Below, piece by piece: positions 6,825 through 62,900 of a DNA stretch of 64,000 nt. Origin of the DNA: a virus; IMG/VR virus record IMGVR_UViG_3300035180_000246, positions 9,859-73,858 of that record. One strand, given 5' to 3'. The position numbers and the translations under genes are program-made. The notes beneath the pieces were generated by a model. It did no database searches, had not been told where the DNA came from, and was given only the letters and a program-made list of their open reading frames with translations. Position 1 is the stretch's first letter, and each line of letters begins with the position of its first letter.

Positions 6825-6843
6825 ATAATCACCTCAAGTGTAT

Positions 6844-18036: not shown

Positions 18037-18243
18037 TTAAATAACTCCTAAAAAGGTTATATCATCTACAGTTATGTAACCTAAGTTTTCTAGTAACTCA
18101 TCAGTTAAAGATAATTCGTATTCAGCAACAACTGCTCTCTCATAGAATATGTCAAAAGGACATAGAGTCTCTTTGCAGATTGTTTCGTAAGTGGTAGTTA
18201 GATTTTTCCAATTGCACGCAATAGTAATTCTATAGTTATACAT
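18037..18243 (-). CDS. Hypothetical protein
   Basis: Track ORF 18037..18294; AGGA ribosome-binding site favours the ATG at 18243. Confidence 0.6.
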   Translation of the reverse strand: MYNYRITIACNWKNLTTTYETICKETLCPFDIFYERAVVAEYELSLTDELLENLGYITVDDITFLGVI

Positions 18244-18488
18244 GGATTTACTTCCTAATTCATGGTTAAGATTGCGGGTTAACATTAAGTACACCTTATA
18301 CCTAACTTAAATAATTTAAGCTATTTAGTATTTAGGTCTATAGACGGATAATTGTATTAAGACTGTCTTTAGATATTAATTATATCTAGAAGAAGAGAAA
18401 ACCAGGTAAAAGAGAAGAAGAGCACTTAGTATAGTAAGCACTCAAGTGTGTGTCAAATTGAATTTTTCGATGAGAACAAGCTTGTTAA

Positions 18489-18791
18489 TCAAAAATTTCG
18501 ATAAGCTACCTGTAAGCTGCTCGACCAATTTATATCTTTAATCAAGTTGTATCTCTCAGCTTTAGCTTCAGCTTTGTTCACACAGTACTCTAAGTAGTAC
18601 CAATTCACAAATTCAGTATACCCTCCTACATGCAGCAGTCCTGGATTAACTCTCAAGATTGCATTAATGTCATATTCAGTCAGCGCCTCTGTATCCATCT
18701 TTATTAAAGTTCTTTTACTTAAAGCTCTTATCAAAGGCTCTTCGACAGCTAGATAGTCACCTAACGCTTTAGCTGTAAATGTATTACTCAT
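18489..18791 (-). CDS. Accessory family C (TFTAKALG.YL...EF..WYYLEY)
   Basis: GGAGG ribosome-binding site; paralogue of 19085..19363. Confidence 0.8.
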   Translation of the reverse strand: MSNTFTAKALGDYLAVEEPLIRALSKRTLIKMDTEALTEYDINAILRVNPGLLHVGGYTEFVNWYYLEYCVNKAEAKAERYNLIKDINWSSSLQVAYRNF

Positions 18792-18838
18792 TTGTTTATA
18801 CCTCCATTAAAGTGTAAGCCTAGCATCTACGATTCAGC

Positions 18839-19081
18839 CTAGAAAGGTAACTCATCTGGATCAGTTACATACTTACCAGCAAGTAGATACCAGTTCTTAA
18901 ATTCGACTATGTGATCATCTACAGATCCTTCACAAGTCCTAAATATTTTCTTTAAAGTTTCTTCCCTAACTACATACGAACTGTTCCATTTCATGAGTAA
19001 ATGTTTAGTATTCCATCCACATGTAGCACATTGGTTAACAAAAGCTTCTACATGATAGACCTTACACTTAATGTTATTCAT
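18839..19081 (-). CDS. Hypothetical protein, possibly a distant family C member
   Basis: CATC; EFKNWYLL resembles EFVNWYYL. Confidence 0.65.
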   Translation of the reverse strand: MNNIKCKVYHVEAFVNQCATCGWNTKHLLMKWNSSYVVREETLKKIFRTCEGSVDDHIVEFKNWYLLAGKYVTDPDELPF

Positions 19082-19084
19082 AAC

Positions 19085-19363
19085 CTACCATCCCATTGCC
19101 TGTTTCCAGTTATGGTCTTGTATTAGAGCATAACGTTTATCAGCAGCTTCAATCTCATCTACGCTGTATTCTAGATAGTACCAAGATATAAACTCATCTA
19201 GATTACCTATAAACCTACTGTTCCTGGTAAAAAGTAATGAAATATTCCCTTCAGTTAATGCAGCTGGATTCATAGGTGTAAAGGTTGAGGCAATTATATG
19301 CTTTACAACATCTTCACTAATGCAAAGGTACTCACCTAACGCTTTAGCTGTAAATGTACTCAT
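19085..19363 (-). CDS. Accessory family C member
   Basis: Paralogue of 18489..18791. Confidence 0.8.
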   Translation of the reverse strand: MSTFTAKALGEYLCISEDVVKHIIASTFTPMNPAALTEGNISLLFTRNSRFIGNLDEFISWYYLEYSVDEIEAADKRYALIQDHNWKQAMGW

Positions 19364-19470
19364 TGGCTTACACCTACAATTAGGTACATACCGACAGCAA
19401 TGATAGTCATCAGTACACTAACAACCTCACAATGGTGGTTAACTACTAATCGATTAATAAACTTACTCAT
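19360..19470 (-). CDS. Small membrane protein (36 aa, not in the ORF track)
   Basis: MSKFINRLVVNHHCEVVSVLMTIIAVGMYLIVGVSQ; AAGGA ribosome-binding site; ATGA overlap with the next gene. Confidence 0.65.
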   Translation of the reverse strand: MSKFINRLVVNHHCEVVSVLMTIIAVGMYLIVGVSQ

Positions 19471-26765: not shown

Positions 26766-27371
26766 ATGTTTAACATTGTAAAAATACCTGCAGGAGATAC
26801 TGCTGTACTCCAGTCAAGCAGTTATGATTTATATACCTATACTGTGTATGTAGGTGAACACGTAGTAGATATCCCTTTAGGCGATTCTTTATGGTTAATT
26901 GGTGATACCTGTGCCAGTGTACATAGAGGTGGTACTAAAGTTAGAAGTGAATCTTTAGCTGTATTAATCAGAGGTTACCAATGTGAAAGTAAAGCATCTA
27001 GTTATGAGAGTATGGTAAATTTACCGTATATTAATGGCTGTAGTTCACAACAAGTGTTCCCTCCTGTAAGACATGGTGATCCTACGCTACAGCTGCTGTA
27101 TATGCCTAAAGGTACTAAAGAACAAGCTCACCATATCCACTCAACTGTTAGAGTGGTTAGGGTTATTGGTGGAAGTGGTTACAGTATTCAAGGTATGACA
27201 GATGAGTCTAAAGTTCCGTTAAATCCTGGCGATGTGCTAGTGCTTGATAAGATGACACCACACCACTTTATTACTGAAGATGCTTACTTACTTGTAGCAC
27301 CTATGCATGTGTATAGCTCTACAGTATTAGAGAATAATCATCCAATGCGTAATGGTACATTTGAAATTTAG
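26766..27371 (+). CDS. Cupin-domain protein
   Basis: QAHHIHST..VRVIGGSG...LNPGDVLVLDKMTPHHF, matching cupin motifs 1 and 2 with His ligands. Confidence 0.85.
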   Translation: MFNIVKIPAGDTAVLQSSSYDLYTYTVYVGEHVVDIPLGDSLWLIGDTCASVHRGGTKVRSESLAVLIRGYQCESKASSYESMVNLPYINGCSSQQVFPPVRHGDPTLQLLYMPKGTKEQAHHIHSTVRVVRVIGGSGYSIQGMTDESKVPLNPGDVLVLDKMTPHHFITEDAYLLVAPMHVYSSTVLENNHPMRNGTFEI

Positions 27372-28272
27372 TAGGAGTATTCGTATGTTAGGTTTAGAAA
27401 ATTCAGCAGATTCTGTAAGATTCTTTCAGTTTTTTGGTGTAATACCTTGCGATAGGACAGGTACATTAGAAGGTTTAATCAATACTGTAAATACTGCCCC
27501 TACTGCTGAAGATAGAGTTGAGTACGTAAATACCACTTTTCAAGAATGTATTGATATGCAGATTGAAAAAATTAAAGCACATCCAATTAAAGATGTAGTA
27601 CTTCTTTGGAGTGGCGGTATAGATTCTACTTTAGTATTCTATGCTTTAGTTGCTGCTGGAATTACATTTAGTGTAGGTATGTCTTTATCATCTGTTAAAG
27701 AGTATCCTATGCTTGCTGCACAAATACAACAAGATGTATCAACAGTAGGTAGTAGAATGTTTCCTACACTTCTAGCCTATGAGTTTATTAGAGAAATGCC
27801 TGAAGGATTCTTAGACAATAAGCTAGTAATTACTGGGGAAATCGGAGATCAGTTAGTAGGTAGTGTACAAATGTTGAACTACACTGACCAACAAAGGTGT
27901 ATGCCTTACGATGAAGTATTGAATACTAGTGAGTATGGTTTATTTGATAACGTTATAAAAACACTTGTTAATACCGACAGTTTAACGTTAGGTGAATTTC
28001 TATGGGGCATGAATTTTGTATTTAAGTATCATGATGTATTAGATAGGATTTCTGATAAACCTTTCTTTGGTACTGGTAGCATTGCTTTTAACTTTTTTGA
28101 CAGCATACCTTTACAAGTATGGAGTATAAATAATTACAAGCAAAATGCTAATTTTACTAAACAAACTGACTACAAAAAAGTATATAAGCAGTACATTTAC
28201 GATGCTAATGGTGATGAAGTGTACTTCAAGTATAAACGTAAAGTAGTGTCTTTACCTCAAATTAATAGATAA
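27352..28272 (+). CDS. Asparagine-synthetase C-domain-like ATP pyrophosphatase (no glutaminase domain)
   Basis: PP-loop VLLWSGGIDST, ITGEIGDQLVG, K..YK..I, KRKV.SL. Confidence 0.8.
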   Translation: MVHLKFSRSIRMLGLENSADSVRFFQFFGVIPCDRTGTLEGLINTVNTAPTAEDRVEYVNTTFQECIDMQIEKIKAHPIKDVVLLWSGGIDSTLVFYALVAAGITFSVGMSLSSVKEYPMLAAQIQQDVSTVGSRMFPTLLAYEFIREMPEGFLDNKLVITGEIGDQLVGSVQMLNYTDQQRCMPYDEVLNTSEYGLFDNVIKTLVNTDSLTLGEFLWGMNFVFKYHDVLDRISDKPFFGTGSIAFNFFDSIPLQVWSINNYKQNANFTKQTDYKKVYKQYIYDANGDEVYFKYKRKVVSLPQINR

Positions 28273-28351: not shown

Positions 28352-28990
28352 ATGTTAGTAAGTACTGTGTTAAATGATGTAGCTTCTGGAGATATTTATA
28401 ATATAGCTCTAGGAGAGTCATTTAGAAATAATCCTTATAATGCTGCTAACGCTGATGCTGCCAATACTCTGATTAGCTATCTAAATCTAGCACTTACAGA
28501 ATTGAGCACTAGGTTTAATATAAAAACAACTGTAGTTACTGTACCTACTTATGAAGGTATTCGATTATATACGCTTAGAGATCCTGACTTAATTAGGGTA
28601 CTTGAAGTGTATGATGATTTTGGAGTGCCTTTAACATTTCCGAATACAGTTGATGATCTTGATTCTTTTGACATTAAAGAAGTTACATTCAACACTTTTT
28701 TAGTAAACAATCCTTTAAATGACCTACACCTTAATTTTGTATGTAAGATGCTACTTCCTGAAGTAACAGATATTTCAGAAGATATAGCTATTTCTAGAAT
28801 GTTTTTAGAACCTGTATGTAACTACATAGCGTATAAAGCTTATAGTTCTTTAGGTGGACCTAATAATCAAAAAACAAGTGATAGTTATTTTGCACGTTTT
28901 GAGAACAATTGTACAAAATTGTTAGAACGAGGATTTACAAATAATCAAGAAAGCTTGTTTAAAAATGTACGTAACAAAGGCTTTGTATAA
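28352..28990 (+). CDS. Head-tail adaptor / tail protein (N4 gp67-like)
   Basis: YLNLALTELSTRF, LEPVCNYIAYKAY, YFARFENNC..L, terminal KGFV; follows terL as in N4-like phages. Confidence 0.8.
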   Translation: MLVSTVLNDVASGDIYNIALGESFRNNPYNAANADAANTLISYLNLALTELSTRFNIKTTVVTVPTYEGIRLYTLRDPDLIRVLEVYDDFGVPLTFPNTVDDLDSFDIKEVTFNTFLVNNPLNDLHLNFVCKMLLPEVTDISEDIAISRMFLEPVCNYIAYKAYSSLGGPNNQKTSDSYFARFENNCTKLLERGFTNNQESLFKNVRNKGFV

Positions 28991-39628: not shown

Positions 39629-39967
39629 TTGATGGATGATATAACTGAACGGGTCATGCGATTAGAGAATGATTTCGCTCATTTTGATAAAACTTTATCA
39701 AAGCTCGATACGACGATGGAAAAGCAAGTTCAAAGTAATTTAACACTATCACACAGTATTTCTGAACTCACCAGAGAAATCTCACGGAATAGTATGGAAA
39801 ATGAGCAAACGTTTACACGTATCCATAAAAATATCGATACGATGGACACAATGATAAACAGTTTACGTGATGACTATCGAGAGACAAAAACACGCCTTTA
39901 TGCGTATGGTGGCGTACTCACACTTATTGTCGCCCCAGCTATGGCGCTGCTGGTCAAACATCTTTAA
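39629..39967 (+). CDS. Coiled-coil protein with C-terminal TM (holin/antiholin- or XhlA-like)
   Basis: ERVMRLE coiled coil, C-terminal hydrophobic helix; first gene of the lysis cassette. Confidence 0.6.
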   Translation: MMDDITERVMRLENDFAHFDKTLSKLDTTMEKQVQSNLTLSHSISELTREISRNSMENEQTFTRIHKNIDTMDTMINSLRDDYRETKTRLYAYGGVLTLIVAPAMALLVKHL

Positions 39968-39990
39968 CTTAAACACAAGGAAACATACAG

Positions 39991-40284
39991 ATGAAACACT
40001 TTGATAAACGCCTGTTCTGGTTATTCGTGCCAGCAATTGCCTTTCTTTATGCCGTTAACGCCAGCTTGTTATTGGAATTTGTTAGCGTTCTGTCGCTAGG
40101 TATGTTGGTTGCTGGATTGACGCATATTATCCGCAAAATCTTATTACCTTATGTTGATATGGGGGATATGGTAGAACAAGCATCATTATCATCTACAGGT
40201 AGTGGGTTGGTCTTTCTAGGTGCATCTGTGATGGTAGCCTCTTTTGCATTAATGATTAGTATGCTTATGTCAGCAGGGCATTAA
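39991..40284 (+). CDS. Putative holin
   Basis: 97 aa with three hydrophobic segments, immediately upstream of the endolysin. Confidence 0.7.
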   Translation: MKHFDKRLFWLFVPAIAFLYAVNASLLLEFVSVLSLGMLVAGLTHIIRKILLPYVDMGDMVEQASLSSTGSGLVFLGASVMVASFALMISMLMSAGH

Positions 40285-40285
40285 T

Positions 40286-40903
40286 ATGGATGCCTTGCCA
40301 GTCAATGCGCTTACCTATTTGCCAGTTCTTAAACAAGAGCAAGTATCATATTGGCATGAACACTATAAGCCCAGCCTATTAGCTGGACAGGTTGAGCAAG
40401 AAAGTTGTACCTCACTTAAATCCCCCAAATGTTGGTCACCCAATGCAGAGCTTAAGACTGACAGAGAATGGGGAGTAGGCTTGAGCCAATTCACCAAGAC
40501 ACAGTCTTTTGATGCTATTGAGGAGATCAAAGCCAAACATCCAGAAATTAACTGGGGAAACTGGTCGTTTAATCATCCATATCAAGCTAACTATCAGTTG
40601 CGTGGGTTAGTTGTCTATATGCGAGATTTAAGTAGCGAGGTCAAAGGGGCAGAAACACCGAATGATAATTATCAAATGGCGTTATCCGCCTATAATGGCG
40701 GCATTGGTGGGCTACGTAAAGAACGATTAAAGTGTAGCTTACTGCTAACCTGCAACCCCAATATATGGTTTGGCAATGTAGAGTTAAGCAGCATTAAAAG
40801 CCACAAACCATTCAAGGGATACGGTCAAAGTCCATATGATATTAATCGTGGTTACATTGGATTAGTATATAGCCGTGCTGATAAATATGAAGGGCGATAT
40901 TGA
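40286..40903 (+). CDS. Endolysin, SLT-like lytic transglycosylase
   Basis: AGQVEQES (catalytic Glu), GVGLSQF, ALSAYNGG. Confidence 0.9.
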   Translation: MDALPVNALTYLPVLKQEQVSYWHEHYKPSLLAGQVEQESCTSLKSPKCWSPNAELKTDREWGVGLSQFTKTQSFDAIEEIKAKHPEINWGNWSFNHPYQANYQLRGLVVYMRDLSSEVKGAETPNDNYQMALSAYNGGIGGLRKERLKCSLLLTCNPNIWFGNVELSSIKSHKPFKGYGQSPYDINRGYIGLVYSRADKYEGRY

Positions 40904-41379
40904 TGTGGTTTTACCCAATGATTACAGCAGCGGCTATCAGTTTCTTTGCTGGATGGTATGTAAATGGATTAAAGCTTAACGCTGAAATTGCACAACTTCA
41001 TGCTACTTGGAATGAAGCCTACAGCAATCAAGTTAAAGCGACGCTAGACAAAGAACACAATATTAACCAGTTAAACACTACGATAGAGGTGAATAATGCT
41101 ATCAAAGCAAGAGCAATCGATGATGCACATGCTGAAAATATCAAGCTTGCTGCTGATGTTAAGCGGTTGCAGCACGCAGCCAGTGGCAGTAACCGCACCA
41201 TGCCCAAAACTAGTGCTGCCTGCCAGTGTACAAGCTCAACCGCCACAAGCGGATTTTCAGACGAGAGTATCAACATTCTTGTCGAACTGGCAAAAGAAGC
41301 TGATGACGCTGCAAGATACGCAAACACCTGCCATGAATGGGCAGTAGGCGTTACGCAAGAATTAGATAAATCTTACTAA
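40900..41379 (+). CDS. Rz: Inner-membrane spanin
   Basis: N-terminal TM FFAGWYVNG, coiled coil, LA.EAD......C. Confidence 0.85.
   Translation: MMWFYPMITAAAISFFAGWYVNGLKLNAEIAQLHATWNEAYSNQVKATLDKEHNINQLNTTIEVNNAIKARAIDDAHAENIKLAADVKRLQHAASGSNRTMPKTSAACQCTSSTATSGFSDESINILVELAKEADDAARYANTCHEWAVGVTQELDKSY
41096..41347 (+). CDS. Rz1: Outer-membrane spanin lipoprotein embedded in Rz
   Basis: +1 frame; lipobox LLMLSGC followed by a Pro-rich segment; likely start 41120-41129. Confidence 0.85.
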   Translation: MLSKQEQSMMHMLKISSLLLMLSGCSTQPVAVTAPCPKLVLPASVQAQPPQADFQTRVSTFLSNWQKKLMTLQDTQTPAMNGQ

Positions 41380-41401
41380 AGATTGGACAATAAGGGTATG
41401 T

Positions 41402-41938
41402 ATGCTTAAAAAGTATATCGAAGAAGGTTATACATTTACTTATGGTATTGCTTCAGATTATAGTGCTGTAGAGATAACCAATATTATAGATAAGCTTAAA
41501 ATAGCTATGAATAAAATGAATGCAACTCTTACTGTAGATATTATCAAAATTAATATAGATACGTATGTTAAGGAGATACTGAGCAATCGTTATCAAGTTT
41601 TAGCCATGTATGGAGAATCTGAATTAGTTGCTGCTTTTGTTTACACCATTGGTAGCTCTGTAACTTACAATGGTGTAATACCTTGCTTCATATGTAACAC
41701 TGTTTGGGTGTCTGATAGTGTTGTAGCTCATGATGTATTTGACAGACTTAGAAATTTTTTATACAGTATAAACGTGTATTGTATAAAAGTGGTAGATGCT
41801 AGAAAAGGTTTTATAGATGTATTTGATAAAACTAGATTAAGGGAAGGTATGGTAGTAAATGAGTTAAATACATCCGATGTTATGGTATACTTTGATAAAA
41901 ATGATAAAAATACAATAAATTTTATAGTACGAAGGTAG
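41402..41938 (+). CDS. Hypothetical protein, possibly a GNAT-fold acyltransferase
   Basis: Helix-helix then strands ELVAAFVY, CFICNTVWV, helix, CIKVVDARKGF; resembles phage GNAT-like proteins by pattern only. Confidence 0.45.
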   Translation: MLKKYIEEGYTFTYGIASDYSAVEITNIIDKLKIAMNKMNATLTVDIIKINIDTYVKEILSNRYQVLAMYGESELVAAFVYTIGSSVTYNGVIPCFICNTVWVSDSVVAHDVFDRLRNFLYSINVYCIKVVDARKGFIDVFDKTRLREGMVVNELNTSDVMVYFDKNDKNTINFIVRR

Positions 41939-41943
41939 TAGTA

Positions 41944-42255
41944 ATGAATAAAGAAATCCCTCTACAAGAATTTTTAAATATCTTAAAAGAAACTATCGAA
42001 TATGAATCTACAGGTTTAGACTTAGATTTTAGTAACTATTCTACTAATTCTAAGTTAAAAGATCTAAATTTAGATAGCTTAGATACTGCATTAACTTTAA
42101 CTGGTTTAGGTAATTATTTTAATATGCCTAGCGATGCTAATGTAGAAGGTTACTTTCCAGATGTAAAAGGTCCTAAAGCACATCTAACAGTTATGGATTT
42201 AGCTGTTTGGATTAATAAGTATAATAATAATGGAGTAAGTATTGATGTATCTTAA
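41944..42255 (+). CDS. Acyl carrier protein
   Basis: Small and acidic; LKDLNLDSLD phosphopantetheine motif; TVMDLAVWI final helix. Confidence 0.85.
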   Translation: MNKEIPLQEFLNILKETIEYESTGLDLDFSNYSTNSKLKDLNLDSLDTALTLTGLGNYFNMPSDANVEGYFPDVKGPKAHLTVMDLAVWINKYNNNGVSIDVS

Positions 42256-43099
42256 TTCCTATTCTTATACTTTAGATCTTTTAGAATCACGTACTAGTGC
42301 ATCTCCGCTAACTTTTACAGTTAGTAAACTGGTTTCAGATTTTAAGTATACACCTGTAGGTGATAAGGTAGGTACTCTACTTGCTGCAGGTAATAGTACT
42401 TGGGCAGGCACAGAGACTGTATATCTATCTACTATTAGTAAAGAAAGTGCTAGAGTATCTTTTATGCAGCAATCGCAAATAGTAGCAGGAAAGTGGGCTA
42501 AACAACTAAAAGCTACTGATTGGTTAAGTACAGATGGTTCTGCTTGTAGTTCTTTAATCATTACTTTAGATTGGGTTAAATATTTATTTGAATCAAGTAA
42601 GCTTACAGATGCTATTATTATTAGCGCAGATGATGGTACTACTGAACTAGTAAAGCAAGCTTTTACTCAAGCAGGTGTTTTAGGTAAAGCATTTAACGTA
42701 GGTTTTGGTGCTAGTATATTTCACGTATCTGCTAAGCAAACTGCAAATAGTATATGTAAGATATCTAATGTAGTTAATAAATATGCAATTGCTAATACTT
42801 TGGTAGATGTGTGTGAAGAAGGGTATACTAGTGTTATTACTAAAGATTTACCTTTAAACTATGTAAAGATGCATGATACCAATACAGAATCAAATAAGGT
42901 AGAATTGGTAGCTGTTAATGTAGCGTATCCAGGATGTGATACATTAAGCTTTAAACAGGAAATAGGACACACTATGGGAAGTTCTACAGGTGTAGAATTA
43001 TGCCTATGTTTAGATAGGTATCCAAATAGTAATATATTGCATTTAAGTGCAGGTATGGGTGGAATGTACGGATCTTTTTTTACGGAGAAACTTAACTAA
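42242..43099 (+). CDS. Minimal beta-ketoacyl-ACP synthase (FabF/FabB-like)
   Basis: SACSS (Cys), FNVGFGAS, YVKMHDTNT..N..E (His), SFK..IGHTMG (Lys, His), SAGMGG. Confidence 0.88.
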   Translation: MMYLNSYSYTLDLLESRTSASPLTFTVSKLVSDFKYTPVGDKVGTLLAAGNSTWAGTETVYLSTISKESARVSFMQQSQIVAGKWAKQLKATDWLSTDGSACSSLIITLDWVKYLFESSKLTDAIIISADDGTTELVKQAFTQAGVLGKAFNVGFGASIFHVSAKQTANSICKISNVVNKYAIANTLVDVCEEGYTSVITKDLPLNYVKMHDTNTESNKVELVAVNVAYPGCDTLSFKQEIGHTMGSSTGVELCLCLDRYPNSNILHLSAGMGGMYGSFFTEKLN

Positions 43100-45216
43100 T
43101 GAAAGATAAATACCTTTCTGCAGATGACAACCTAATTGATGCAGTTTCTGAAGAACAGTTAGAAAATAATGTTACAGAGACATTTGAGGTTAAGTGGAAG
43201 AATCCTCCTAAAGTGTCTAACCTAAAAGGCGACTATATTGCAGCTTTACCTACACATTCATCACATATTACTAATGTGGGTAATTGGTTAGATTTACTAA
43301 GTGGTAAATCTAAAACTAAGTTTGCTAAGAACAGATCTAGCGTACAACCTAAACTTGCACGTAAACAGGCTGAATGGCGTTATGCTTCATTATCAGAACC
43401 TTTTTTAAGTTCTAGTAACATATTTGATGCGCAACCTGTTACGTGGGAAGATACTAAGGCTGCTGAACAAAATACTTTAGTACTTAACCACCAATTTAAT
43501 AACAAAATTAATAAAGTAAGATTTGTTGACGAGTATGTACGTACAGCTGTTGATGAAGGTACTATCGTTGTTAAGGTAGGTTGGGAATACGAAGAAGCTG
43601 AGCAAATGGTAGAAGAGCCTGTAATGGGTCAGCTTCCTGTACAAGATCCTGCTCAAGCTCAACAAATGATTTCTCAAGGTATTCCTCCATTCCAAGAAGC
43701 TCAAGTAGGTACTAAACTTGTTAAAAAGATGGTTGCTGTTGAGAATCATCCTACTACTGAAATTTGTGAATTCGAAAACGTAATCATTGATCCTACATGT
43801 AAAGGTGACATTTCAAAAGCGAAGTTTGTCATACATAGATACAATGTATCTATGGATGTATTGAAAGCTGATAAGCGTTATAAAAACTTAGACAATATTC
43901 AATTTACTGGTGAAGATCCTAGTACTTATCCAGACTACAATGATAAAGATGCTGGTAACCTATTTACGTTTAAAGATAAAACTCGCAAGAAAGTAGTAAT
44001 GTATGAGTATTGGGGATACTGGGATGTTAATAATGATGGTTCATTAACTTCTATTTTAGTGTGCTATATTGGTAACACTATTGTTCGTATGGAAGAGAAT
44101 CCATACCCAGATAAGAAATTGCCTTTTGTAGTAGTTCAATATTTACCTGTACGTAAATCTATTTATGGTGAACCTGACAGTGTATTGTTAGAAGATAACC
44201 AAGCAATTATTGGAGCTATTACTAGGGGTATGATTGACCTTATGGGTAGATCTGCCAATGCTCAACAAGGTATTAGAAAAGATGCTTTAGATGTAATTAA
44301 TAAGCGTAAATTTGATCTAGGTGAAGATTACCAATTTAGCCCTAATATCATGAATCCTGAGCAAGCAGTATTTATGCATAGATACCCTGAAATTCCTCAA
44401 TCAGCTATGATGATGATTCAGTATATGAATAATGAAGCTGAGTCTATTACAGGCGTTAAAGCTTATAATACAGGCATTGGTGGTCAAGGTTTAGGTAATA
44501 CAGCTACAGGTGTTAGAGGAGCTTTAGATGCAGCTTCTAAGCGTGAACTAGGTATTCTTCGCAGATTAGCTGACGGTATTATTCAAATAGGTCGTAAATT
44601 CATTTCAATGAATGCTGAATTTTTATCTGATACTGAAGTAGTTAGAATTACAAATGATGAATTTGTTCCAGTTAAGAGAGATGATTTAGCAGGTAATATT
44701 GACTTACGCTTGACAATTAGTACTGCAGAGACAGATAATGAAAAAGCTCAGGAATTAGCGTTTATGCTACAGACATTAGGTAATAGTGTACCAATGGATG
44801 TAACTATGATGATTATGTCTGATATTGCTAAGCTTCGTAAGATGCCTGAATTAGCTAAGAGACTTAAAGACTATCAACCCCCTGCTCCAGATCCTATGCA
44901 ACAACAGATGCAACAATTGCAGTTACAGATGTTACAAGCAGAGGTTGTAAATGAACAGGCTAAGGGTCAAGATAGACAAGTTGATGCTAAATTGAAATTA
45001 GCTAAAGCAGGTGTAGCACAGGCTCAAACTCGTAAGATGAGTAGTGATGCAGATATGACTGACTTAGATTTTGTAAATAAATCTACAGGTGTTGATCATC
45101 AACAGACTCAGGAATTAGCTGCACAAAATCATCAACAAAACATTGATGAACATGCAGCAAAAGCATTGCTTGAATTTCATAAAGAAAAAGCAATGCCTAA
45201 AGAAGACGCAAAATAA
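43099..45216 (+). CDS. Portal protein (N4 gp59-like)
   Basis: RSSVQPKL.RKQAEWRY..LSEPFL, IIDPTC.GD, YEYWG, RMEENPYPD, ELGILRRLA. Confidence 0.95.
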   Translation: MKDKYLSADDNLIDAVSEEQLENNVTETFEVKWKNPPKVSNLKGDYIAALPTHSSHITNVGNWLDLLSGKSKTKFAKNRSSVQPKLARKQAEWRYASLSEPFLSSSNIFDAQPVTWEDTKAAEQNTLVLNHQFNNKINKVRFVDEYVRTAVDEGTIVVKVGWEYEEAEQMVEEPVMGQLPVQDPAQAQQMISQGIPPFQEAQVGTKLVKKMVAVENHPTTEICEFENVIIDPTCKGDISKAKFVIHRYNVSMDVLKADKRYKNLDNIQFTGEDPSTYPDYNDKDAGNLFTFKDKTRKKVVMYEYWGYWDVNNDGSLTSILVCYIGNTIVRMEENPYPDKKLPFVVVQYLPVRKSIYGEPDSVLLEDNQAIIGAITRGMIDLMGRSANAQQGIRKDALDVINKRKFDLGEDYQFSPNIMNPEQAVFMHRYPEIPQSAMMMIQYMNNEAESITGVKAYNTGIGGQGLGNTATGVRGALDAASKRELGILRRLADGIIQIGRKFISMNAEFLSDTEVVRITNDEFVPVKRDDLAGNIDLRLTISTAETDNEKAQELAFMLQTLGNSVPMDVTMMIMSDIAKLRKMPELAKRLKDYQPPAPDPMQQQMQQLQLQMLQAEVVNEQAKGQDRQVDAKLKLAKAGVAQAQTRKMSSDADMTDLDFVNKSTGVDHQQTQELAAQNHQQNIDEHAAKALLEFHKEKAMPKEDAK

Positions 45217-51993: not shown

Positions 51994-53919
51994 ATGGCAG
52001 CGTATGTACCAACGTTTACACAAGTTAAAGCACCTGAGTTTGATTCTAAAGGTATGTACCTTGCCAATAACATGTTTAGCCAAGGACTAAACAGTGTTGT
52101 AAATGTATTTAAAGATGAAGCAGCTAAGCAGAAGGAAGATAATACTTATGCAGCTATAGGTAGGATTAAGCAAGCAGCTCAAGAGGGTATTACTAGAAAC
52201 GATCAAGTACAGGCTGCTTATTCAGATCCAGGTATAGCTACATTTGATGCTAATGATGCTGCTAATTTAAGAGCTTCACAAGCTAGTTCTGCTCCTACTC
52301 AATTAAGTGAAATGCTTAATCAGTATACTGAAAATAGGGGTACTACTCCTATCGACTTGAGATTACTTAATCAACAGTACGATACTACCAATAAGGATAT
52401 GCAGGATAGGTTTGATCATCGTGAAGATCTAAGTATGAAGTTACATGATGCCTCTACTAAAGAAGATCAGTGGAATCAAACTTATTCGGCTGGTAGAACA
52501 GATGCTGCGAATACTCAAAGTAATGCTGAAGCAAGATTGAAGAATGATCAGGCAAGATTAGCTGGTGAAGCTACAGAAAGATCACAACGTATGAGGTATT
52601 CGACAGAAGATCATCAACGTAGTAAAGATATTTACGATGCTGGTTTAGCTCAAAATAGTATACTAAATGGTAGTAAAGTTTTTGAGAATGGTCTAGTAGG
52701 TGATTTATCTATACCTGCAGGAGATGGTAATGCAGTTACAGTAAGTAAAGCTGATCATGATTTAGTACTTCAAGATCCAACTAAAGTAAATGATATTGCT
52801 ACTAAATACGGCGTAACTGCTGCACAATTTATGGATACGTTGGGTGCTGCTAAAGCTGATAGGGCAGCGCAAGTAAAGAACTTCATAAGTTCTGGTATAA
52901 ATACTGGTAGCTACACCCCTAGAGCAAAGCAACTACTAGCTAATACATTATCTGGTGAATTGACAAAGTATACAGGGCAGATTCCTAGTACTGTAGAAGC
53001 TGCGGCTAGTAATAATAATGGCCAATTAACTTCTGGATTTAACAGTGTGGTAAATGCCACTAATAATGTATTCAAAGATAACATTGCACATGCTTTAACG
53101 TATACTAAAGGTAGTGATGGTAACTATGGTTTTAGTATTGATCCTGAAGCGTTTACGCAAATTACAGGAATGTCTGTGAATGATCCTAGAGCTGCAGAAA
53201 GGGTACAAAAGATAACTGAGTATGCAAACAAAGCAGGGGTAGATAGCAACTTTTCAGCTTTACTGAAAAATACTAAAGCATCTGGTATACCTAGTTTAAT
53301 TGCACAACAAGCTAAAACACTTCAAGATAATGTAGCTGATGCAGCTAAAAAACAAAGTGCAGATTTAGATGCTCAGCTTAATGCTAAAAAAGCTCATGTA
53401 CTGAATCCTAGTGAAATTTCTAGCTATTTTGAAAATACTGCTAAAGAGTTTGGATCTAGTCCCGAAGCAACTAATGGATCTAAGATTGCTGCGTCTTTAT
53501 TACAGAATGTAGTTTTAGATCCAACCTTATCAAGGGTAGTAAATGAAAAGTTCATAGATGACTTTAAGCAAAGATTGGCTAATACTGGTATTTTTGAAGA
53601 TCGCAAAGGTAAGGTATTTAGTATAGATAGAGACTATAGTGATATATACAGAACCTTTACTGATACTTTAGCAGATAATGGAGTAATTGATACAGACACT
53701 GCTGATAAAATGAGGGAAAAGGCAGGAACTAACTACAGCCTTTTACCTGGTTTTTCAGATTTAGATCAACCAGGTGTAGCATATAAGGAAAGTGTAGCAA
53801 AAGCTGCTTCAAATGTACGTACAGCTTTAAGTGATTATATGAAAACTAAACCTAATCCAGCTAACACTCTAAATGCTTTAGGAAACAATGCAACTCTAAC
53901 GACGTACCCTAACAAATAA
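51994..53919 (+). CDS. N4 gp51-like ejection protein
   Basis: Ala-rich, no Cys; directly upstream of the vRNAP gene. Confidence 0.7.
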   Translation: MAAYVPTFTQVKAPEFDSKGMYLANNMFSQGLNSVVNVFKDEAAKQKEDNTYAAIGRIKQAAQEGITRNDQVQAAYSDPGIATFDANDAANLRASQASSAPTQLSEMLNQYTENRGTTPIDLRLLNQQYDTTNKDMQDRFDHREDLSMKLHDASTKEDQWNQTYSAGRTDAANTQSNAEARLKNDQARLAGEATERSQRMRYSTEDHQRSKDIYDAGLAQNSILNGSKVFENGLVGDLSIPAGDGNAVTVSKADHDLVLQDPTKVNDIATKYGVTAAQFMDTLGAAKADRAAQVKNFISSGINTGSYTPRAKQLLANTLSGELTKYTGQIPSTVEAAASNNNGQLTSGFNSVVNATNNVFKDNIAHALTYTKGSDGNYGFSIDPEAFTQITGMSVNDPRAAERVQKITEYANKAGVDSNFSALLKNTKASGIPSLIAQQAKTLQDNVADAAKKQSADLDAQLNAKKAHVLNPSEISSYFENTAKEFGSSPEATNGSKIAASLLQNVVLDPTLSRVVNEKFIDDFKQRLANTGIFEDRKGKVFSIDRDYSDIYRTFTDTLADNGVIDTDTADKMREKAGTNYSLLPGFSDLDQPGVAYKESVAKAASNVRTALSDYMKTKPNPANTLNALGNNATLTTYPNK

Positions 53920-53987: not shown

Positions 53988-56900
53988 ATGTTAGCTACAG
54001 GTATTCTAGATGGTTCAGTAAATAGTGAAGCTTATGCTAATCTACTAGTAAGTAAACTAAGTTCAGTACAAGAAGCTTTGCAACAGAAACGGGCTGAAGG
54101 TATTGAACCTACTGCAACTGCATATAAACCTGAAGGCGATACAGTAGACTACTTAAATAAAGCTACTGGTGATGTACTTAAAACTATTTTAGATGTTCCT
54201 CAAACTCTTAGAGACAACATACTACCTAATGCTCCTTTAATACATGGTGGTGTCTTAAATGCAGTAGGTGAAGGAGTAGATTGGGCTGCTGATAAGTTAG
54301 ATGGTTCTGACAACAGTGCTGTCAATTTTTTACAAGATTCTCTAAGAAATCTTGCAGGAGTTACGAAGTCTACTGCTGAACCTATGATTGATGCTGGTGC
54401 TTCTATACAAGATTTAGGCAGATCTGCTGTAGATTATGTAGATAATAACCCCTATGTAAAAGCAGCTGTTGATACCGTTGCTGCACCTATTAATACACTT
54501 ATGGATATACCTACTAATGCAGGTAACGCTTTAAAAGATGTACTTACTAATGATGAAGTAGGCTATAGAGCTGGCAGACGTTTAGGTAATACTTATGCAA
54601 GTAATCTTGCTAAGAATCCTGATAGTCCAGTAGCAGCATCATTAGGGGCTTTAGCTGATACAGTTGCTGATCGCCCTTCAGATGTTTTAAAGTTTATGGC
54701 TCAAGCAGCACCTTCTGGATTAGCGGCAGCATATGCTCCAGGTACTTTCTTAACTGGTATGGCTGGTCAAAATATCAAAGATAACTTAAAAGCTTTAGAT
54801 GAAAACCAAGCTAATGCTGCATTTAATGATGAGAACGGTGTACTAAATATACCTATAGATGTTCCAGCTAAAACTAGGGCTGCTTCTGTAGTTGCATCTT
54901 TAGCTGGTGCTGGTACAGACTTTTTTGGTGACAAAATCGTAGGAAATGCTCTTACAGGTAAAGGTTTAAAATTACTAGCTTCTGGTGGTGTACTAGGTAA
55001 GGCTGCTGCAGGTGTAGCTGATGTAGGTCTGGCAGGTACTGGAGAGTACGCTGCTGAGAGTGGTGCAAGCCTTCTTAATGACATAGCTAAAAATCCTGAT
55101 GCACCTTTAACTGATGAGCAAATACGTAATGCACATATACAGGGTCTTGAAGGTGCTTTAGGTGCTGGAGGTATTTCTGCTACACGCAATGGATTAGATC
55201 TAGCCAATTCAGGTATCAATGCTGCTGCTAACAAAGCTGTAGAAATGCAAGCTGATAGGGTAAATACAAAAGCTCTAGATAGCGGTAATGCAACTGAACG
55301 TATGACAGCATTTACTAAAGATCCAGAACTAAACAAGTTAGGTACTGAATATCCTGATGTCAAATATAGTGCATTAGCCCCTGAAGATCATAAAGACTTT
55401 AACCCTATTAAGGAACTTGAGAACCTCCATACAGATTGGCAAGGTTTCATGGAAGATCAGATCACTAATGATAAGCCAACAACACTCAAAGAAAAGATGG
55501 ACAGCTTTTCACAAGTAGTACAAAGTTTGAACGGTGCTGTCACTAACTTAAAAGACTTAAATGATGCAGTACAGGCATCAGATACAGCTACACCTAAACA
55601 GAAGAAAGAATTACAAAGACTCTTAGACTTCAGTATTAAAGATGCTCAAGAGAAATCTAAAGTAGCTCCTGAAATTGTAGGTAAGTATATGGATGATATT
55701 GTAGCTACTATGCAGAATAGAGCTGCAGAAGCTTCTAAGGTCACTGAAGAAGACTTAACACCTGAAACACTGCAGTTAGCTCAAGAAGCTGCTCTACATC
55801 GTGTAGAGAATCCTACAGCTAATACTAGCGAAGAAGACAATACTAAAGCTATTAAAGATTTACGTACTGTTTCGGTAACTAAGGAAGCTGTTCCTGCAGT
55901 CGTAGCTACAGATGACTCTATCCAACAAGTGGTAGATACTATTGATAAAGGTATTGCTCAATTAGAAGCTGAATCTAAAACTTTAGGTGCTAATCCAAAT
56001 AGTAAAGGAGGCAAACCTTCTTCATACTACACAAATAGAATTAAAAAACTACAAGAAGTTAGTAATGAAATCCAACATGGTAAGAGTTCTAAGTTTCCTG
56101 GATTACAAAGTCATTACGCACGTAATGCAGCAATATATAGTGCTAAGAATGATGTTACTGGTTTAGAAGACTTACAGAGCCAATTAGATAATTGGTTAGG
56201 TTTCCAGACAAATAAACAACTGCGTATTGAGAACAATTCTAAAAATCACTTACCAGTTTTTATCGATGCTGTAAGAGAAACTACTCAAGCAATTGAAAAT
56301 ATGCAAACAGAGTTGGCTGTCCGTATTAAAGAAGCTAAAGCTAAACAAGGTAGTACTAAAGCTTCCGTAAAAGCTCCTAGTCCAGTTAATTCTGCTACTA
56401 GTAGTACTAGTAGTACTAAGCCAGCTAAAGTGGCTACAGAAGCTCCTAATTCAACCAGTGTTGATGTTAATGTCACTAATGTAAATAAACCAGTTAAAGC
56501 AACTACAAAGGCTACCAAAAGCTCTGATAGCCTTGCTAGTGATACTACTACTACTACTAAATCTACTAAACCAGTTGAACCAGTAAACGTTGATGTAACT
56601 AGAGCTGAAACACCTCAAGCTAAAGCAGATAGTGAATCGGATACTAAAGCAGTAGAAGATAAACCGAGTGAAGTAGAGAGTGTAGAATCTACAGATAATA
56701 CTAAGGCTGATGAAACTGAAGCCAATCCTACCTCAGTATTTAAAGATGTTACTCCAACAAACTTAACTACTGGTGATGGTTTTGGTAAAACTGCTAAAGA
56801 TAGAGAACAAAACATTAATAATGCTTCTAAAGCAATTAGTACTGAAATAGTTAATGCTAAGCCTGAAAGTGATAGTATTATTAAGACTATGCGTGAAAAA

Positions 56901-59900
56901 GCCGAAGATGGTGTACGACGTATAAGTAGTAACATACATTCTGTATTAGCTAATGCAGCTAAATTTCATCGTAGTGTTTCAAGCCGTATTGATGGTTTAT
57001 CAGAGGATACTACATCAAAGTTTCGTAAGGTATTGGCTAGTGGTATTAGAACTGTCATGAATTCAGTATCTGAAGCTTCTATTAAGAAAGGTGGCATGGC
57101 TACTTATCATAAAGTAGTTAGTGAATCTGGTGACAGAAACTATATCAATCAAAATACTATTCTTAATCTTTTGAGTGTTAGAGAGAAGAATCCAAAAACT
57201 AACCTTATAGAAGATACATTAGATCCTACAGTTGCAGCACATGTAGTAGTTGCTGCTTTAGATTATGCTAAATTCATGCTTAAGAGTACTACCGACATTA
57301 CTTTAAGTACGGTAGAGCAGGTTTTTGGTGCTAAGAGTTTGGCAAAAGTACCTGTTGAATATGTACGTAAAGCTGAAGCATTCTTAAAGACAGTAGGCTT
57401 ACCTGTAAGTACTGCTGCGATGAGTATTGGTAAAGATATTGCTAGAATGAGTAATATCGAATTTTCTGAGGAATCTTTTGTAGAAGATAAAGATGCTATG
57501 CATACAGCTCTAGGTGTAGCAGCACTAAACTACTTGAACATCCTTGGTTTAGTAACCTATTCTGAAGTACCTAATAGTGCAGTTGCAGAGCTTAAACAAA
57601 TTCTGCAGAATCCAACAAGAGCACCAACACCGAGTAAGAGTGTAGCTACAAACTTATATTTTAAGTTTAATGTAGATAACGAAGCTGTTTGGGAAGAACT
57701 GATGAAGCAGTTAAAAGATCCTTCAGGTAAAGACATTCTAGAAGCTTTTAGAGGTGAATCGCGAACTGATACCAAAGCTCTACAACCTGCTGCCTATGGC
57801 AGTGTCAAAACTACTAGAGCTGCGAATAGAGTACCGCCTAAAGAAGTTACAAATGCTGCTAAGACTTTAAATGAAACTCCATTTAAGTTTAATCCATACT
57901 TGGTTAGGTTATTAGTAGAACCTTCTACTAGAGTAGCTGCTGCCCAACAAGTCATCCAATCACTAAGTGATTTAGGCAACTTTAAACTTACTGGTTTAGA
58001 TGATACTGAAATTACTGAGAGTGTAAGATACTTCGTTGATAACAATGTACAGGCTATGAAGCGTATAGAGCAAGAAGCTGTAATAACTGATCATATTCGT
58101 AGTGTTAAGAGACTACTAGATTTTATTGATAATGATATTGGTCAAGATACTTCTAAGTTAGATAATGACTTCTTTGCCAGATATGCAGTTGATGTGAATG
58201 ATCGTATCAGATTAGATTCTACAATCAATCCAGGAAGTGATAAAGCTATTCATAGACTGTTCTTAGTAGACAGCAACTCACATAATGTAATTAAAGCTCC
58301 TGCTACCAATAATGACTATAAAGATGCTTTAGCATCTAACCTTGGTTTAATAGACGAGAAGTCTGATACTGCTGCTGTAGAGAGTGCTCGTAAAAGCATG
58401 AGAAAACTTATGACAACACTGTCTAAGAACCTCTCAGAGGACGCTTTAAATGACCTACAGAAGCTTTTAAATGAAGACACATCTATATCTACATCTGTAG
58501 ATATTGGTAAGCTATATAAAGCAATCAATACTACTGAAGGTATGGTAGGTAAAGTAGAAGACTTAAGTACTCTTATGGATTTAGCTAACCTTACTCTCCG
58601 TTTCCCTAGAGAAGGTAAAGCAACTAAACATAAATTTACATCCACTCTAGTAGTAGAAGTAGATGGTAAATCTAATGGCGTATTCTTAGCTTTAGTACAG
58701 AGTCCTATTGGTGACTTAGCAACTCAAGAAACGTTATTACGTAAAGTAGGTATATACTTAAATAACTCTTTTAAATCATTTGCTGATTGGGCTTCTAATA
58801 AAAATGGTTTAGTAGGGCATCATGAATCTGACATATACGAGCATAATGCTGAGGGTATGTCTGGAGTATTGAAAAGTGTATTCTCTAACGATGCACCTGA
58901 AGTTGCACAAGCTAAATTAAAAGCTATTTCCAATCTGCTAGGTGAAGTATTAGTAAGTGATGATGGTATTATATCAAAAATTGCTAGAGAACTGAATAAA
59001 AACCCATTAATGGTATTCTCATACAATGCTGGTGAATCTACCATTGATGGTAATGTTACCGATGAAATTTTTAGTACACATATACCTAACCGTATAATGT
59101 ATGTAGCTAATTTAGCTAAACAAGGCGATAGAACAGCATTTGATGCTTTCAAAAAGTCTTTGAAACAAGCTTTAGCTAAAGACATTACTGACACTAACGG
59201 TATGAGGAATATAGATAGCCTTTCACCTGAAAATGCTATTAATTTTAGACTTACACCTAAACAACTAAATGTATTAAAAGATAAGTTAATAAAACCTACC
59301 GCTGAATCCTTAACTATAGCTGTATCTGAAATTATGTCTAATCAACGTAATGTTGCTAAGTTAACTACTAAAATATTCCAAGAGCAGTACACTATATATA
59401 AAGAGGCTGAGAAGCGTATTAAAGAGTCTTTAGGTATTAATCCTAATGATAATGATATGACTATTAAGCAGGCTGAAAGTTTAGCTAAACAGTTAAGACC
59501 TTTCATACCATCATTTAACGGGCCTTTTGGGTTAAAGGATAGTAAGCCTTACCTTTTTGAGGACGATAAGCAAATAGTAGGTTCTCCTGTATTTACATTA
59601 GTAGTTGAAGGTACTAATGATAGAGCTACAGTTAACATGAAGCATTCAGCTAATAGCTATGCTGGTATATCTGAAGATATGCAGCCTACCATAGTTGGTA
59701 AAACAGTAGCTTCTAGAAATATTGGTGTCGAACGTAAAGATGTAGGTGATCCTGGTGTAGCTGCTTCTGCATTAATGACTCATGCTCAAGATGCGGCTAT
59801 TATGGCTCTAACCATTAAGAAAATGAAAGCTGCTGGTATTACAGGATTGCATGTATTTGATGCTGTTAAAACCAGTAGTGAACACGCAGCTCAAGTATCT

Positions 59901-62900
59901 AGATTCCTGAACGAATCTACTATTGAATTGATGGAGATGTATAATCCTTTAGAGGATTCTATGTCATCATTATTGAACAAAAGATTTTTACTAGCTAGAC
60001 TTGAAGTTAGTCTAAATTCTTCAGATAGTGATAAAGTACTAGGTCACTTTACTGATGAAGAGCTTAAAACAGTCAATTCTAAGATGCTTACACCAAGATC
60101 TTCAAAAAATAGTGATGAAGCTGTTGATCTATATGGTATATACGACATGTATACTAAGTATATTAATGACAATAACTCAATATTATTCAGTAATGAAGCC
60201 ACAGTAGATCAATACCCTACTGCTGGTGGTATGGGAGCTATTAGAGCTAAAATTACACCTAAAAAGCTACCAAGCTTACAGGATATGATTACTAGTTATA
60301 AGAGTATGTTAGATCCTGATTCTTTAGCGGATACTTCTAAAGACACTACTGAAGATACATCTAAAGAAGACGGAAGCTTATTTGGTAATCCTAATGCTGA
60401 CAAAGCTACCCTTACTTCTTTGGTTTCTAGTGATACAGTTAATAGTGTAGAAGACATCCTTACACTAGCTACAACTGTTGCAGCTAAAGATAACCAGAAT
60501 GTAAATCCTAGTTATTTAAAAGAGATGCAAGACCTTTTAGGCAAACTCTACAGTAAAGTATCGACTGCTATAGATCCAGTATTAGTAGAACTACATGATG
60601 GTTCTTTAAACACAGGTTCAGCTGATACTATCAACCGTAAGATTGATGTTATTCGTCAAGCTAGTCCAGTAAATAACGTTACTCAGTCTAATACTGAAAT
60701 TCTATTACATGAATTCTTACACGTAGCTACTACTGCATCTGCACTAGAGGGAGTTAAATCTAAAGAGTTGTTAGACCTTTGGACTATGGCTAAGGATGCT
60801 TTGGATTACACAGTATTTCTGCCTAACAATACTCTAACTAATACTGCTCAAGAGATTGCAGAAGCTAAAGCTCTTTATGACTATATCTTCAATAACACAA
60901 AGAGTATTAACGGCACTAACGTAGGATTGTTAGAGTTTATTTCTTTTGGTTTATCTAATCCTAACTTTAGAGATGCTCTTAAGAATATTAAGGATACTAA
61001 TACTATCCAAACTCCTTCAGCTATTCTAAAACTAGTTAAAGAAGGTTCTTTCTTAGATAAGATTGTTACAGCAGTGCTTAATCTTATTGGTAAGTTGTTA
61101 GATAAATCTGTTGAAGGACGTAAACCAACTAATGTACATGATGCTTTAATAAGTTTAGCTCAACACTTAATTGAAGTAGAAGCTAAGAGTAAAATTGCAG
61201 CTAGTTCAGATGGCTTTTTAAACAAAGTTGACAATGCTGTAGAAGCAGCTAACAAGAAAGTAAGTACTACTTTCGATAAGTTTAGTGAGAAGTATGATGC
61301 TTGGTATGAGAAGCAATCTAACAAACCTACAACTACATCTACTACGTCTACAAGACTGGATCCAGAACAGCTTAAATTAGCTCAGTGGGCTTACTACAAC
61401 TTAGCTAAATCAACTATGGGTTATACAGATGTAGAAGCTCTAAGAGCTGCTAGTAGCATTTTAACCTATGAAGATAGAACTCAAGCACTAAGCACTTTAG
61501 CACATGCTACTGTCCTTAAAGATACTGGCTTATTGAAGCATCTGTATCATCAGGTCTTCACTGAAGATCCATTATCTAAACCTTGGATAAAAGCTTTACG
61601 TGTCACTAAAGCAGGTATTGAGATGCATCGTAAAGCTATTCAAGAGACTGTTACTGGTAGTGTTAAAAATGGCTTTACAAAGCTCACGGAAGAGCAGGAT
61701 GACTTCTTAGAGCGTACTGTACTCAGAACTGATCTACAAGCTCTACACGCTCATTTAAACTACGACGTTAAAGCTACTATTGATATGCTTAAAGATTCCT
61801 CTAAGTTAGCTAAGTTCATTAAAGATACTGAAGCAAGACTTAAACTGTCTCCTGCTATTATCAGCCAAGCTAACGGTTTAGCTGAGTATATGATTACAGG
61901 TAAAACTTCACAGAAGAACCAGTTAAGAAACTCTACAGCAATTGCTTTACATGCTAAATCTGAAATTAGTGTACCTGACCTTGATGCATACATAACTGCA
62001 TTAGCTATTCAAAAAGCTTCTGTAGATGTAACTACATTAGATGGTATTGGCGGTCTAGAGGAAGGGTTGAATAACCTTCTAGAGTTCCATAGAGGCTATG
62101 TACAGGATACTAAAGAAACTATATTCCACGGTTCTGAGCTACAGATGATTAAAGGCTACACTAGAGAAGCTATCGATAACACTAAAGAATATGCTTTTAT
62201 GCGTACAAGTGATGTTAAAGAGCTTAAAGCAGACGGTTGGAATACTACAGAACTAATGGTACAAGATCCTATTACAGGTACTAGCCTCAGTATGTATGTA
62301 CGCTCTAATGTCATGAAAGCTCAAGTACATTCAGGCGTATTTAGTTTAATGTCTAACAGACGTAAAGGTACTTCTTATTCTGACATGCTTAGAGATGCTG
62401 GAATTACTGATCCAAAAGAGATAGCAAAACGTGTTAATAACTTAAATGCTTCTAGGGATTTCGTACCTATTCTTAATAATAATGGTGAAATTATTGATTA
62501 TGTAATCAATATTTCTGAAAGTAATAGAGTTAAGCATCTGAATAAAAAGTATAGCGCATCAGAAGCTTTAGGTAGAATGTATGGAAGTAAGTTAAATAAG
62601 CAACTGACTCCTAATCATAATACTAAGATGGTAGAAGTAGCTAAACGTCAGTGGGATGCTGAAAAAGCTACTAACGCTAATAAGTTTGAATGGATAGACG
62701 CTAACCATAAAGAATATGGTGATTTGTATAAGAGTTTACCTGCTCAAACTAAAGCAGATATAGAAAGTACTTTCGGTAGATCAGGAATACCTGTACCAAA
62801 AGGCTCTGTACCTTTGGCTCTTGGTTTTGAAAAATACTTAGTAGGTGACTCTTCTATTGTTAAGTTTATGCAAGCTAAGATGCCTAAAGTACCTGTCAAA

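Follow-up and report, generated by a model that had tools for sequence, protein, structure and literature searches.

The described system whose logic appears closest to the genes considered here is NodF/NodE/NodA of rhizobia, in which a dedicated acyl carrier protein (ACP) feeds an N-acyltransferase, a dedicated ketosynthase (KS) of the KAS-II type works beside it, and the remaining steps are borrowed from housekeeping fatty-acid synthesis. A candidate viral set of comparable make-up, three adjacent genes for a 178-aa predicted GNAT-fold protein, a 103-aa ACP and a 284-aa reduced KS, was analysed in a stretch of 64,000 nucleotides (the window) from IMG/VR record IMGVR_UViG_3300035180_000246, positions 9,859 to 73,858. 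The record of 73,858 bp is 100% complete according to CheckV and the window makes up most of it; the phage is N4-like, with an open reading frame (ORF) for a 3300-aa virion RNA polymerase at 53988-63890. The rhizobial system differs in that NodE is a full-length KS of about 400 aa whereas the phage KS is reduced, in that NodA lies outside the families found at phage loci, and in that its acceptor is a chitin oligosaccharide whereas the phage genes are viral and stand in a virion operon.

Small acetyltransferase-like proteins are also encoded inside the virion/ejection operons of podoviruses as IVP-A (T7 gp13, P22 gp14); the counterparts in T7, P22 and epsilon15 are small non-structural assembly proteins that head the ejection operon and match acetyltransferases by HHpred (Hardies et al. 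2016, PMC4819975). The 178-aa gene of the window is placed differently, between the Rz and ACP genes and ahead of the portal, and does not head the ejection genes. A GNAT-like fold of about 170-200 aa is shared by LuxI-type synthases (LasI, TofI), HlyC and N-acyl amino acid synthases, all of which use acyl-ACP rather than acyl-CoA; no motifs specific to these families were recognised in the 178-aa protein, and HlyC-type enzymes were absent among the structural matches listed.

Post-translational acylation by way of a carrier-protein system that the virus itself encodes has not been described for tailed phages, and an ACP-KS-GNAT module within structural operons of phages was not found described in literature searches; at present the module is either left unnamed or annotated as a metabolic helper gene. 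The searches thereby agree with the original prediction, made from the DNA sequence alone, which knew of no functional characterisation, but related phage ACPs are annotated as auxiliary metabolic genes and acetyltransferase-like IVP-A proteins are known in podoviruses.

The three genes are interpreted here as a private late acyl-transfer cassette that would be completed by host enzymes, a reading to which we assign a probability of roughly 0.5. They had been predicted to lie between the Rz spanin and the portal, and the ORFs are found there:

40900..41379, + strand: Rz-like i-spanin (PHROG Rz-like spanin, E 1e-8), which bounds the cassette upstream and is separated from the next gene by a 22-nt gap
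41402..41938, + strand: 178-aa GNAT-fold protein, candidate acyl-ACP-dependent N-acyltransferase (ORF, AlphaFold2 (AF2) model, Foldseek, VIA-align)
41944..42255, + strand: 103-aa divergent ACP with predicted phosphopantetheine site Ser45 in LDSLD (family profile, alignment of 48 sequences)
42245..43099, + strand: 284-aa reduced FabF/KAS-II-type KS (phmmer family, profile against FabF, AF2 model)
42242, + strand: alternative TTG start of the KS, which would yield 285 aa
43099..45216, + strand: portal protein of the SU10/N4 type (Pfam SU10_portal, E 7e-147; PHROG portal, E 2.5e-234)

The 178-aa gene is separated from the ACP gene by only 5 nt. The ACP and KS genes overlap as predicted, although by 11 nt and not 14 nt when the KS is taken to begin at the ATG at 42245, which is the likelier start: related proteins of 284 aa have their first Met at this position, and GGAG stands 9 nt upstream. 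The last A of the KS stop codon TAA is shared with the portal ATG (TAATG at 43097-43101), again as predicted. On the + strand no terminator-like site was found between the lysis genes, the cassette and the portal, and promoter-like sites were not more frequent than in shuffled sequence; the proposed late, portal-coupled placement is supported. Genes for a phosphopantetheinyl transferase, malonyl transferase, ketoreductase or dehydratase, reported at the outset as lacking from the window, are absent from the whole 73.9-kb genome, so that the ACP would have to be primed and supplied by the host. Cassette DNA is present in runs of four sediment and microbial-mat metagenome studies, two of which may have yielded the window, and no RNA run with the cassette is listed among public runs.

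The ketosynthase and its carrier protein

Taken alone the KS stays below the family cut-offs, with 16 bits against 20.8 for Pfam Ketoacyl-synt_C (E 0.013), no match to the N-terminal domain and 21.6 bits against 407 for the NCBIfam KAS model, and FabF is reached only at E 0.3 when the single sequence is compared with the PDB. An exhaustive phmmer search with the KS against 1.84 billion representatives gave 82 clusters with lengths of roughly 270-380 aa. When the profile of an alignment of 66 KS relatives, 20-39% identical to the query apart from one close relative, is run against the PDB, FabF comes out at E 2e-26 and the catalytic motifs coincide; in HMMER alignments HGTST and K..GH fall on their FabF counterparts, and 58 of the 66 members match Pfam Ketoacyl-synt_C. 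The Cys-His-His triad and Lys named in the original prediction are borne out by this alignment: Cys102 in SACSS is conserved at 90% or more, and His211 in KMHDT as well as Lys238 and His243 in SFK..IGHT are invariant, together with E221 and G242.

The AF2 model of the KS has a predicted local distance difference test score (pLDDT) of 93.9 and a predicted template modelling score (pTM) of 0.92, and displays the two-lobed thiolase-type KS fold. Its top Foldseek matches are all ketosynthases (probability 1.00, TMq 0.68-0.79, identity 12-17%), among them the actinorhodin KS/chain-length factor of a polyketide synthase (PKS) of type II, FabF and KS domains of PKS. With KAS II/FabF (1OX0, 2RJT, 1KAS) and the KS of type II PKS (1TQY) the phage protein shares the thiolase-type fold, the Cys-His-His residues, the Lys and the HGTGT-like and GH motifs. 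It was said to be far shorter than FabF, and with 284 aa against a full length of about 400-430 aa it has about 125 residues less; most of the first ~100 residues are missing, FabF before position ~110 being left without a counterpart in the profile alignment, and compared with a 366-aa phage relative there are deletions of 11, 7, 10 and 25 residues. Judged from these alignments the window protein is a true but strongly reduced KAS-II-type ketosynthase, and the residues that carry its chemistry are under selection. A quickly built, unrooted tree places the KS of the window lineage on a supported branch of its own. Enzymes of 273-295 aa would rank among the smallest ketosynthases with a complete active site, whatever their target, and such a mini-KS would interest enzymologists as well as those who engineer fatty-acid and polyketide synthesis.

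The 103-aa protein was predicted to be an acidic ACP with an LDSLD phosphopantetheine site, and indeed has an isoelectric point of 4.29 with LDSLD as residues 43-47. On its own it has no Pfam hit (PF00550) and scores 15.9 bits against a cut-off of 70.45 for TIGR00517; a profile made from the small ORFs that precede KS genes in phages finds it at E 9e-8. In an alignment of 48 such sequences the only invariant columns are D44 and S45, and PP-binding is matched at E<0.05 by 9 of them. The 60 best PDB matches of the alignment profile are all ACPs; NodF and another ACP share the first place at E 1.3e-6, and the DS falls on their attachment serine. By this profile evidence the protein is a divergent ACP, with predicted phosphopantetheinylation at Ser45. 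The helix-II residues following DSLDT are neutral in the phage ACP, whereas E. coli AcpP has Glu41, Glu47 and Glu48 at those positions, which suggests a partner specificity unlike that of the host carrier.

The GNAT-fold protein and the distribution of the ACP-KS pair

The 178-aa protein had been called GNAT-like. No family was assigned to it at the sequence level in Pfam, PHROGs, NCBIfam or a PDB profile search, and what upholds the description is a predicted fold of moderate confidence. The AF2 model, built on a shallow alignment, has pLDDT 64.5 and pTM 0.67 and the order of strands and helices typical of GNAT proteins. Foldseek returned 167 PDB matches at E<=1e-3, and the top matches listed are all GNAT; in VIA-align, an independent structural search against representatives, the top 50 all belong to the GNAT superfamily, including NatD (Z 11.1 over 154 residues), LasI (Z 10.6), SbzI (Z 8.9) and TofI (Z 8.7). 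LasI and TofI are acyl-ACP-using synthases of N-acylhomoserine lactones (AHL), and SbzI is a carrier-protein-directed transferase. On the modelled structure a GNAT fold is supported. Homologues of the protein were found only in the same phage lineage, at 67-75% identity. A predicted complex with the ACP obtained a score of 0.12 and a mark of 0.32 and is used neither for nor against an interaction.

The spread of the ACP-KS pair was followed in IMG/VR by scans with long-form and short-form sub-alignments of the KS. The long-form scan gave at least 561 relatives at tblastn E<=1e-3, a count that may include ordinary FabF, and 80 loci at 62-98% identity to the query were kept; another 37 loci came from the short-form scan. 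In about 100 of these 117 usable loci, a set that is a lower bound on the occurrence of the pair, the KS is immediately preceded by an ORF of 73-135 aa that contains (L/I/M)DS(L/M/F) and overlaps the KS start by 4-35 nt, and the loci that lack an overlapping upstream ACP ORF are mostly artefacts of crude ORF choice. The uncultured phages carrying the module come from sediment, mat, freshwater and marine samples. The pair is always found within virion/ejection (morphogenesis) operons. In the long-form order a SU10-type adaptor, a tail gene and a 700-aa virion protein are followed by ACP, KS, a 148-aa protein of a family here called c3 and large proteins ending in a transglycosylase, and in other N4-like contigs scaffold, capsid and two tail-region genes are followed by ACP, KS, a ~165-aa protein of a second family, c20, and a gp53-like 780-aa protein. 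The window and two close relatives have the order GNAT-ACP-KS ahead of the portal, and are distinct in this position and in having their own GNAT family.

ACP and KS together form a unit specific to phages. When 185,579 species genomes were scanned with the short-form patterns only, the mini-KS was met on one contig of a metagenome-assembled genome (MAG), Sulfurospirillum sp. UBA1314 DBTO01000169.1, at 5001-5903. No ACP was recognised upstream of it by hidden Markov model; the contig, probably of phage origin and grouped into the MAG by binning, could point to a host among the Campylobacterota. Among GenBank phages the KS family was found by tblastn only in MW202545, and other FabF matches there, in unannotated Listeria, Enterococcus, Staphylococcus and Pseudomonas phage records, resemble ordinary bacterial FabF and are not counted here. 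Of the 477 GenBank phage records with the portal type of the window, none carries the KS, in line with the prediction that these genes are not part of the N4 core. In MW202545, at 5561-6939, the 93-aa ACP gene with DIDSLD is annotated only as hypothetical, and its KS, as read from the sequence, probably begins further upstream than annotated, at a GTG that gives 366 aa from MIYLNDYRY, like MYLNSYSY in the window.

A gene of 145-180 aa flanks the pair in 94 of the 117 loci, belonging to c3 in 68, to c20 in 23 and to the 178-aa family in 3. The c3-like gene stands directly downstream of the KS in 68/72 loci and the c20-like gene in 23/26; neither occurs anywhere in the 64-kb window. The pairing of ACP with KS is widespread; the 178-aa family accompanies it only in close relatives, and unrelated small proteins take its place elsewhere. 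The best PDB match of the c20 profile is a GNAT acetyltransferase (E 0.0044 over 107 aligned residues); the c3 profile found nothing in the PDB, c3 and c20 show no homology to each other by hhalign, and Pfam scans of all members of both gave nothing relevant. Language-model neighbours of c20 and c3 include GNAT, DUF1999 and DUF2824 clusters, and a protein atlas connects c3 to DUF2824 with a score of 0.93, both being leads only.

Related ACPs occur in two cultured N4-like phages of Alteromonas. In Alteromonas phage vB_AmeP_PT11-V19 (OP751378, 5995-6745) the ACP overlaps a c20-like 167-aa gene with no KS between them, the two standing between gp54-like and gp53-like genes; by hhalign its ACP matches the alignment of 48 ACPs with 98% probability and the neighbour matches c20 with 97%. 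Alteromonas phage R22Y (PP212876, Schitoviridae) carries an ACP of the same family as that of the window (tblastn E 3e-9 to a short-form ACP). The window KS had no match in the phage collection that includes PT11-V19 and R22Y. The N4-like Klebsiella phage Pylas lacks the ACP, and its gp54-like and gp53-like genes follow each other with nothing in between. As PT11-V19 keeps both the ACP and the c20-like gene and Pylas has neither, the small protein travels with the carrier, and the KS is, on this comparison of gene content, an optional addition to carrier and small protein.

The proposed acyl transfer and competing explanations

In the proposed mechanism, every chemical step of which is inferred, as are the link between GNAT-fold protein and ACP and the acceptor, a host phosphopantetheinyl transferase would prime the phage ACP on Ser45 and host FabD would probably malonylate it. 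The reduced KS would take an acyl group onto Cys102 and condense it with malonyl-ACP by decarboxylation, leaving a (3-oxo)acyl chain on the phage's own carrier, apart from the host pool, and the GNAT-fold protein would then hand this group over from there to an amine acceptor. The cassette presumably shares a transcript with the lysis and portal genes and has its translation coupled to that of the portal, so that it would act during virion building. The original prediction likewise had the KS load or extend an acyl group on the phage ACP and the 178-aa protein transfer it to a virion or host target, for instance to lipidate ejection or tail proteins. As acceptor a phage assembly or entry protein is tentatively preferred, though at low probability, and would parallel the acetyltransferase-like IVP-A genes heading podovirus ejection operons. 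The c3 and c20 genes of the other ACP-KS phages occupy a slot like that of IVP-A, after a tail gene and before large ejection-type proteins; this link is positional and not one of demonstrated homology, and we know of no acyl donor or activity for IVP-A. Extended to tailed phages generally, the idea would be one of ACP-dependent protein lipidation, in which a mini-KS charges the carrier and a GNAT-fold partner, IVP-A-type assembly proteins included, acylates a virion or ejection protein so that it engages the host envelope at genome delivery; in this broad form it is doubtful. Should the cassette lipidate an assembly or entry protein, it would offer a biochemical handle on the assembly of podovirus ejection proteins or on their membrane entry, and it might, if true, explain why acetyltransferase-like assembly genes head ejection operons.

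Several observations weigh against the acyl-transfer cassette. The model of the 178-aa protein is of moderate confidence, with three segments below pLDDT 50 and residues 40-62 and 134-157 poorly modelled. The usual CoA-binding (pyrophosphate) loop of GNAT motif A, Q/RxxGxG/A between beta4 and alpha3, is by our reading not recognisable in the protein, the corresponding stretch being VWVSDSVVAHDVF, with no Gly. No homology of the 178-aa protein to c3, c20, c38, c78, c97, c102 or c30 was detected (hhalign probability 0.4-9.6%), and searches at E<=1 with PF11039 (P22 gp14) and PF11090 (T7 gp13) found nothing in the genome of the window or in four further phage records with ACP-KS. The KS of the window reads GMGG, with GMGN or GLGG as the family consensus, at the position of the C-terminal GFGG loop of FabF with its gating Phe, and has Asn218 where FabF-type enzymes have Asp; both replacements may alter the chemistry. 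Finally, the cassette here precedes the portal and is not beside ejection genes; there is thus no conserved proximity to any one acceptor.

If ACP and KS were instead auxiliary metabolic genes that boost or re-route host fatty-acid and phospholipid synthesis, with the 178-aa protein unrelated to them, the KS would be expected to look much as it does in its active site, since it retains exactly the residues for decarboxylative elongation of the fatty-acid synthase (FAS) type. There is precedent for such an annotation as well, the related ACP of R22Y having been annotated as an auxiliary metabolic gene and interpreted as support for host fatty-acid metabolism (PMC11705849), and prophage fabG-acpP-fabF sets having been described in the same terms (PMC8224337). 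The KS family is however restricted to phages, its identity to FabF is just 12-17% when structures are aligned, the pair is found in late structural operons and not in metabolic or early modules, a small flanking protein is nearly always beside it, and its absence from the 477 cultured N4-like records shows that it does not answer a general need. Helix II of the phage ACP also lacks the acidic residues used by FAS partners. A reduced and phage-restricted KS, a structural-operon context and a constant partner gene fit poorly with a metabolic helper, which is an unlikely explanation; the original prediction had likewise held that this is no ordinary fatty-acid pathway, and in agreement with that the KS is virtually confined to phages and has no other FAS enzymes beside it in these operons. 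A role as decoy, in which ACP or KS titrates host ACP-dependent enzymes or defences with no catalysis, is highly improbable: ACPs bind many partners as a matter of general knowledge and nothing specific speaks for a decoy, while the (near-)invariance of the catalytic Cys, both His and the Lys in 66 sequences at 20-39% identity, and of the ACP serine in 48, points to selection on chemistry.

The remaining two explanations concern what the 178-aa protein does. The joint product of the three proteins might be a diffusible N-acyl compound instead of a modified protein, for example an N-acyl amino acid or a signal resembling an AHL and formed from 3-oxoacyl-ACP. When no reductase acts after the KS, its product would be 3-oxoacyl-ACP, from which LuxI enzymes naturally make 3-oxo-AHLs, and the acyl-ACP-using synthases LasI (Z 10.6) and TofI (Z 8.7) are tied with the top among the structural matches. 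The same Z scores, however, fail to separate LasI from protein and aminoglycoside acetyltransferases, the conserved N-terminal Arg/Phe/Trp/Asp of the LuxI family are by our reading all missing from the 178-aa sequence, and a signalling gene would not usually stand in a morphogenesis operon with its translation coupled to that of the portal, leaving such a synthase improbable. It is of similarly low probability that the ACP-KS pair alone is the functional unit and the GNAT-fold gene a mere neighbour, engaged for example in acetyl-CoA-dependent acetylation of a host or phage target. The confinement of the 178-aa family to close relatives of the window phage and the lack of detected homology to c3 or c20 would suit a chance neighbour. 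Against this, the slot touching ACP-KS is filled by three different small-protein families in 94/117 loci, the c20 family shows weak GNAT signals itself, and the 178-aa gene ends just 5 nt ahead of the ACP gene.

Base composition and neighbouring genes

The GC content at third codon positions (GC3) is 0.14-0.21 in the cassette, 0.21 in the portal and 0.40 in Rz. Recent horizontal transfer of the cassette, considered because of its low GC, was rejected as its GC3 resembles that of the portal. The lysis genes, endolysin and Rz (39800-41400), have a GC content of 0.41-0.44, and the genes on either side a GC3 of about 0.14-0.21, which suggests that the lysis block and not the acyl cassette is the compositional outlier. 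The portal is ~52% identical to portals of Klebsiella and Salmonella Schitoviridae.

In Klebsiella phage Pylas the gene just before the virion RNA polymerase (18025-19449, the gp51 position) is annotated in the record as acyl-CoA reductase/LuxC-like, of the aldehyde dehydrogenase superfamily; its counterpart in the window (51994-53919) has no Pfam hit. At 26766-28272 on the + strand, just upstream of the SU10-type adaptor gene at 28352-28990, a cupin gene (Pfam Cupin_2, E 2.8e-6) precedes that of a 306-aa PP-loop protein with faint similarity to the PP-loops of NAD synthase and asparagine synthase. A split pathway joining the cassette with these two genes was considered and is unsupported beyond the immediate lineage: the PP-loop gene was found only in an 87%-identical relative and is absent from four other ACP-KS phage records, which are mostly incomplete. 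Nested in Rz in another frame, at 41096-41347 on the + strand, is an ORF of 83 aa with a signal-peptide-like start and a lipobox-like LLMLSGC, which from these sequence features looks like an Rz1-type o-spanin inside Rz.

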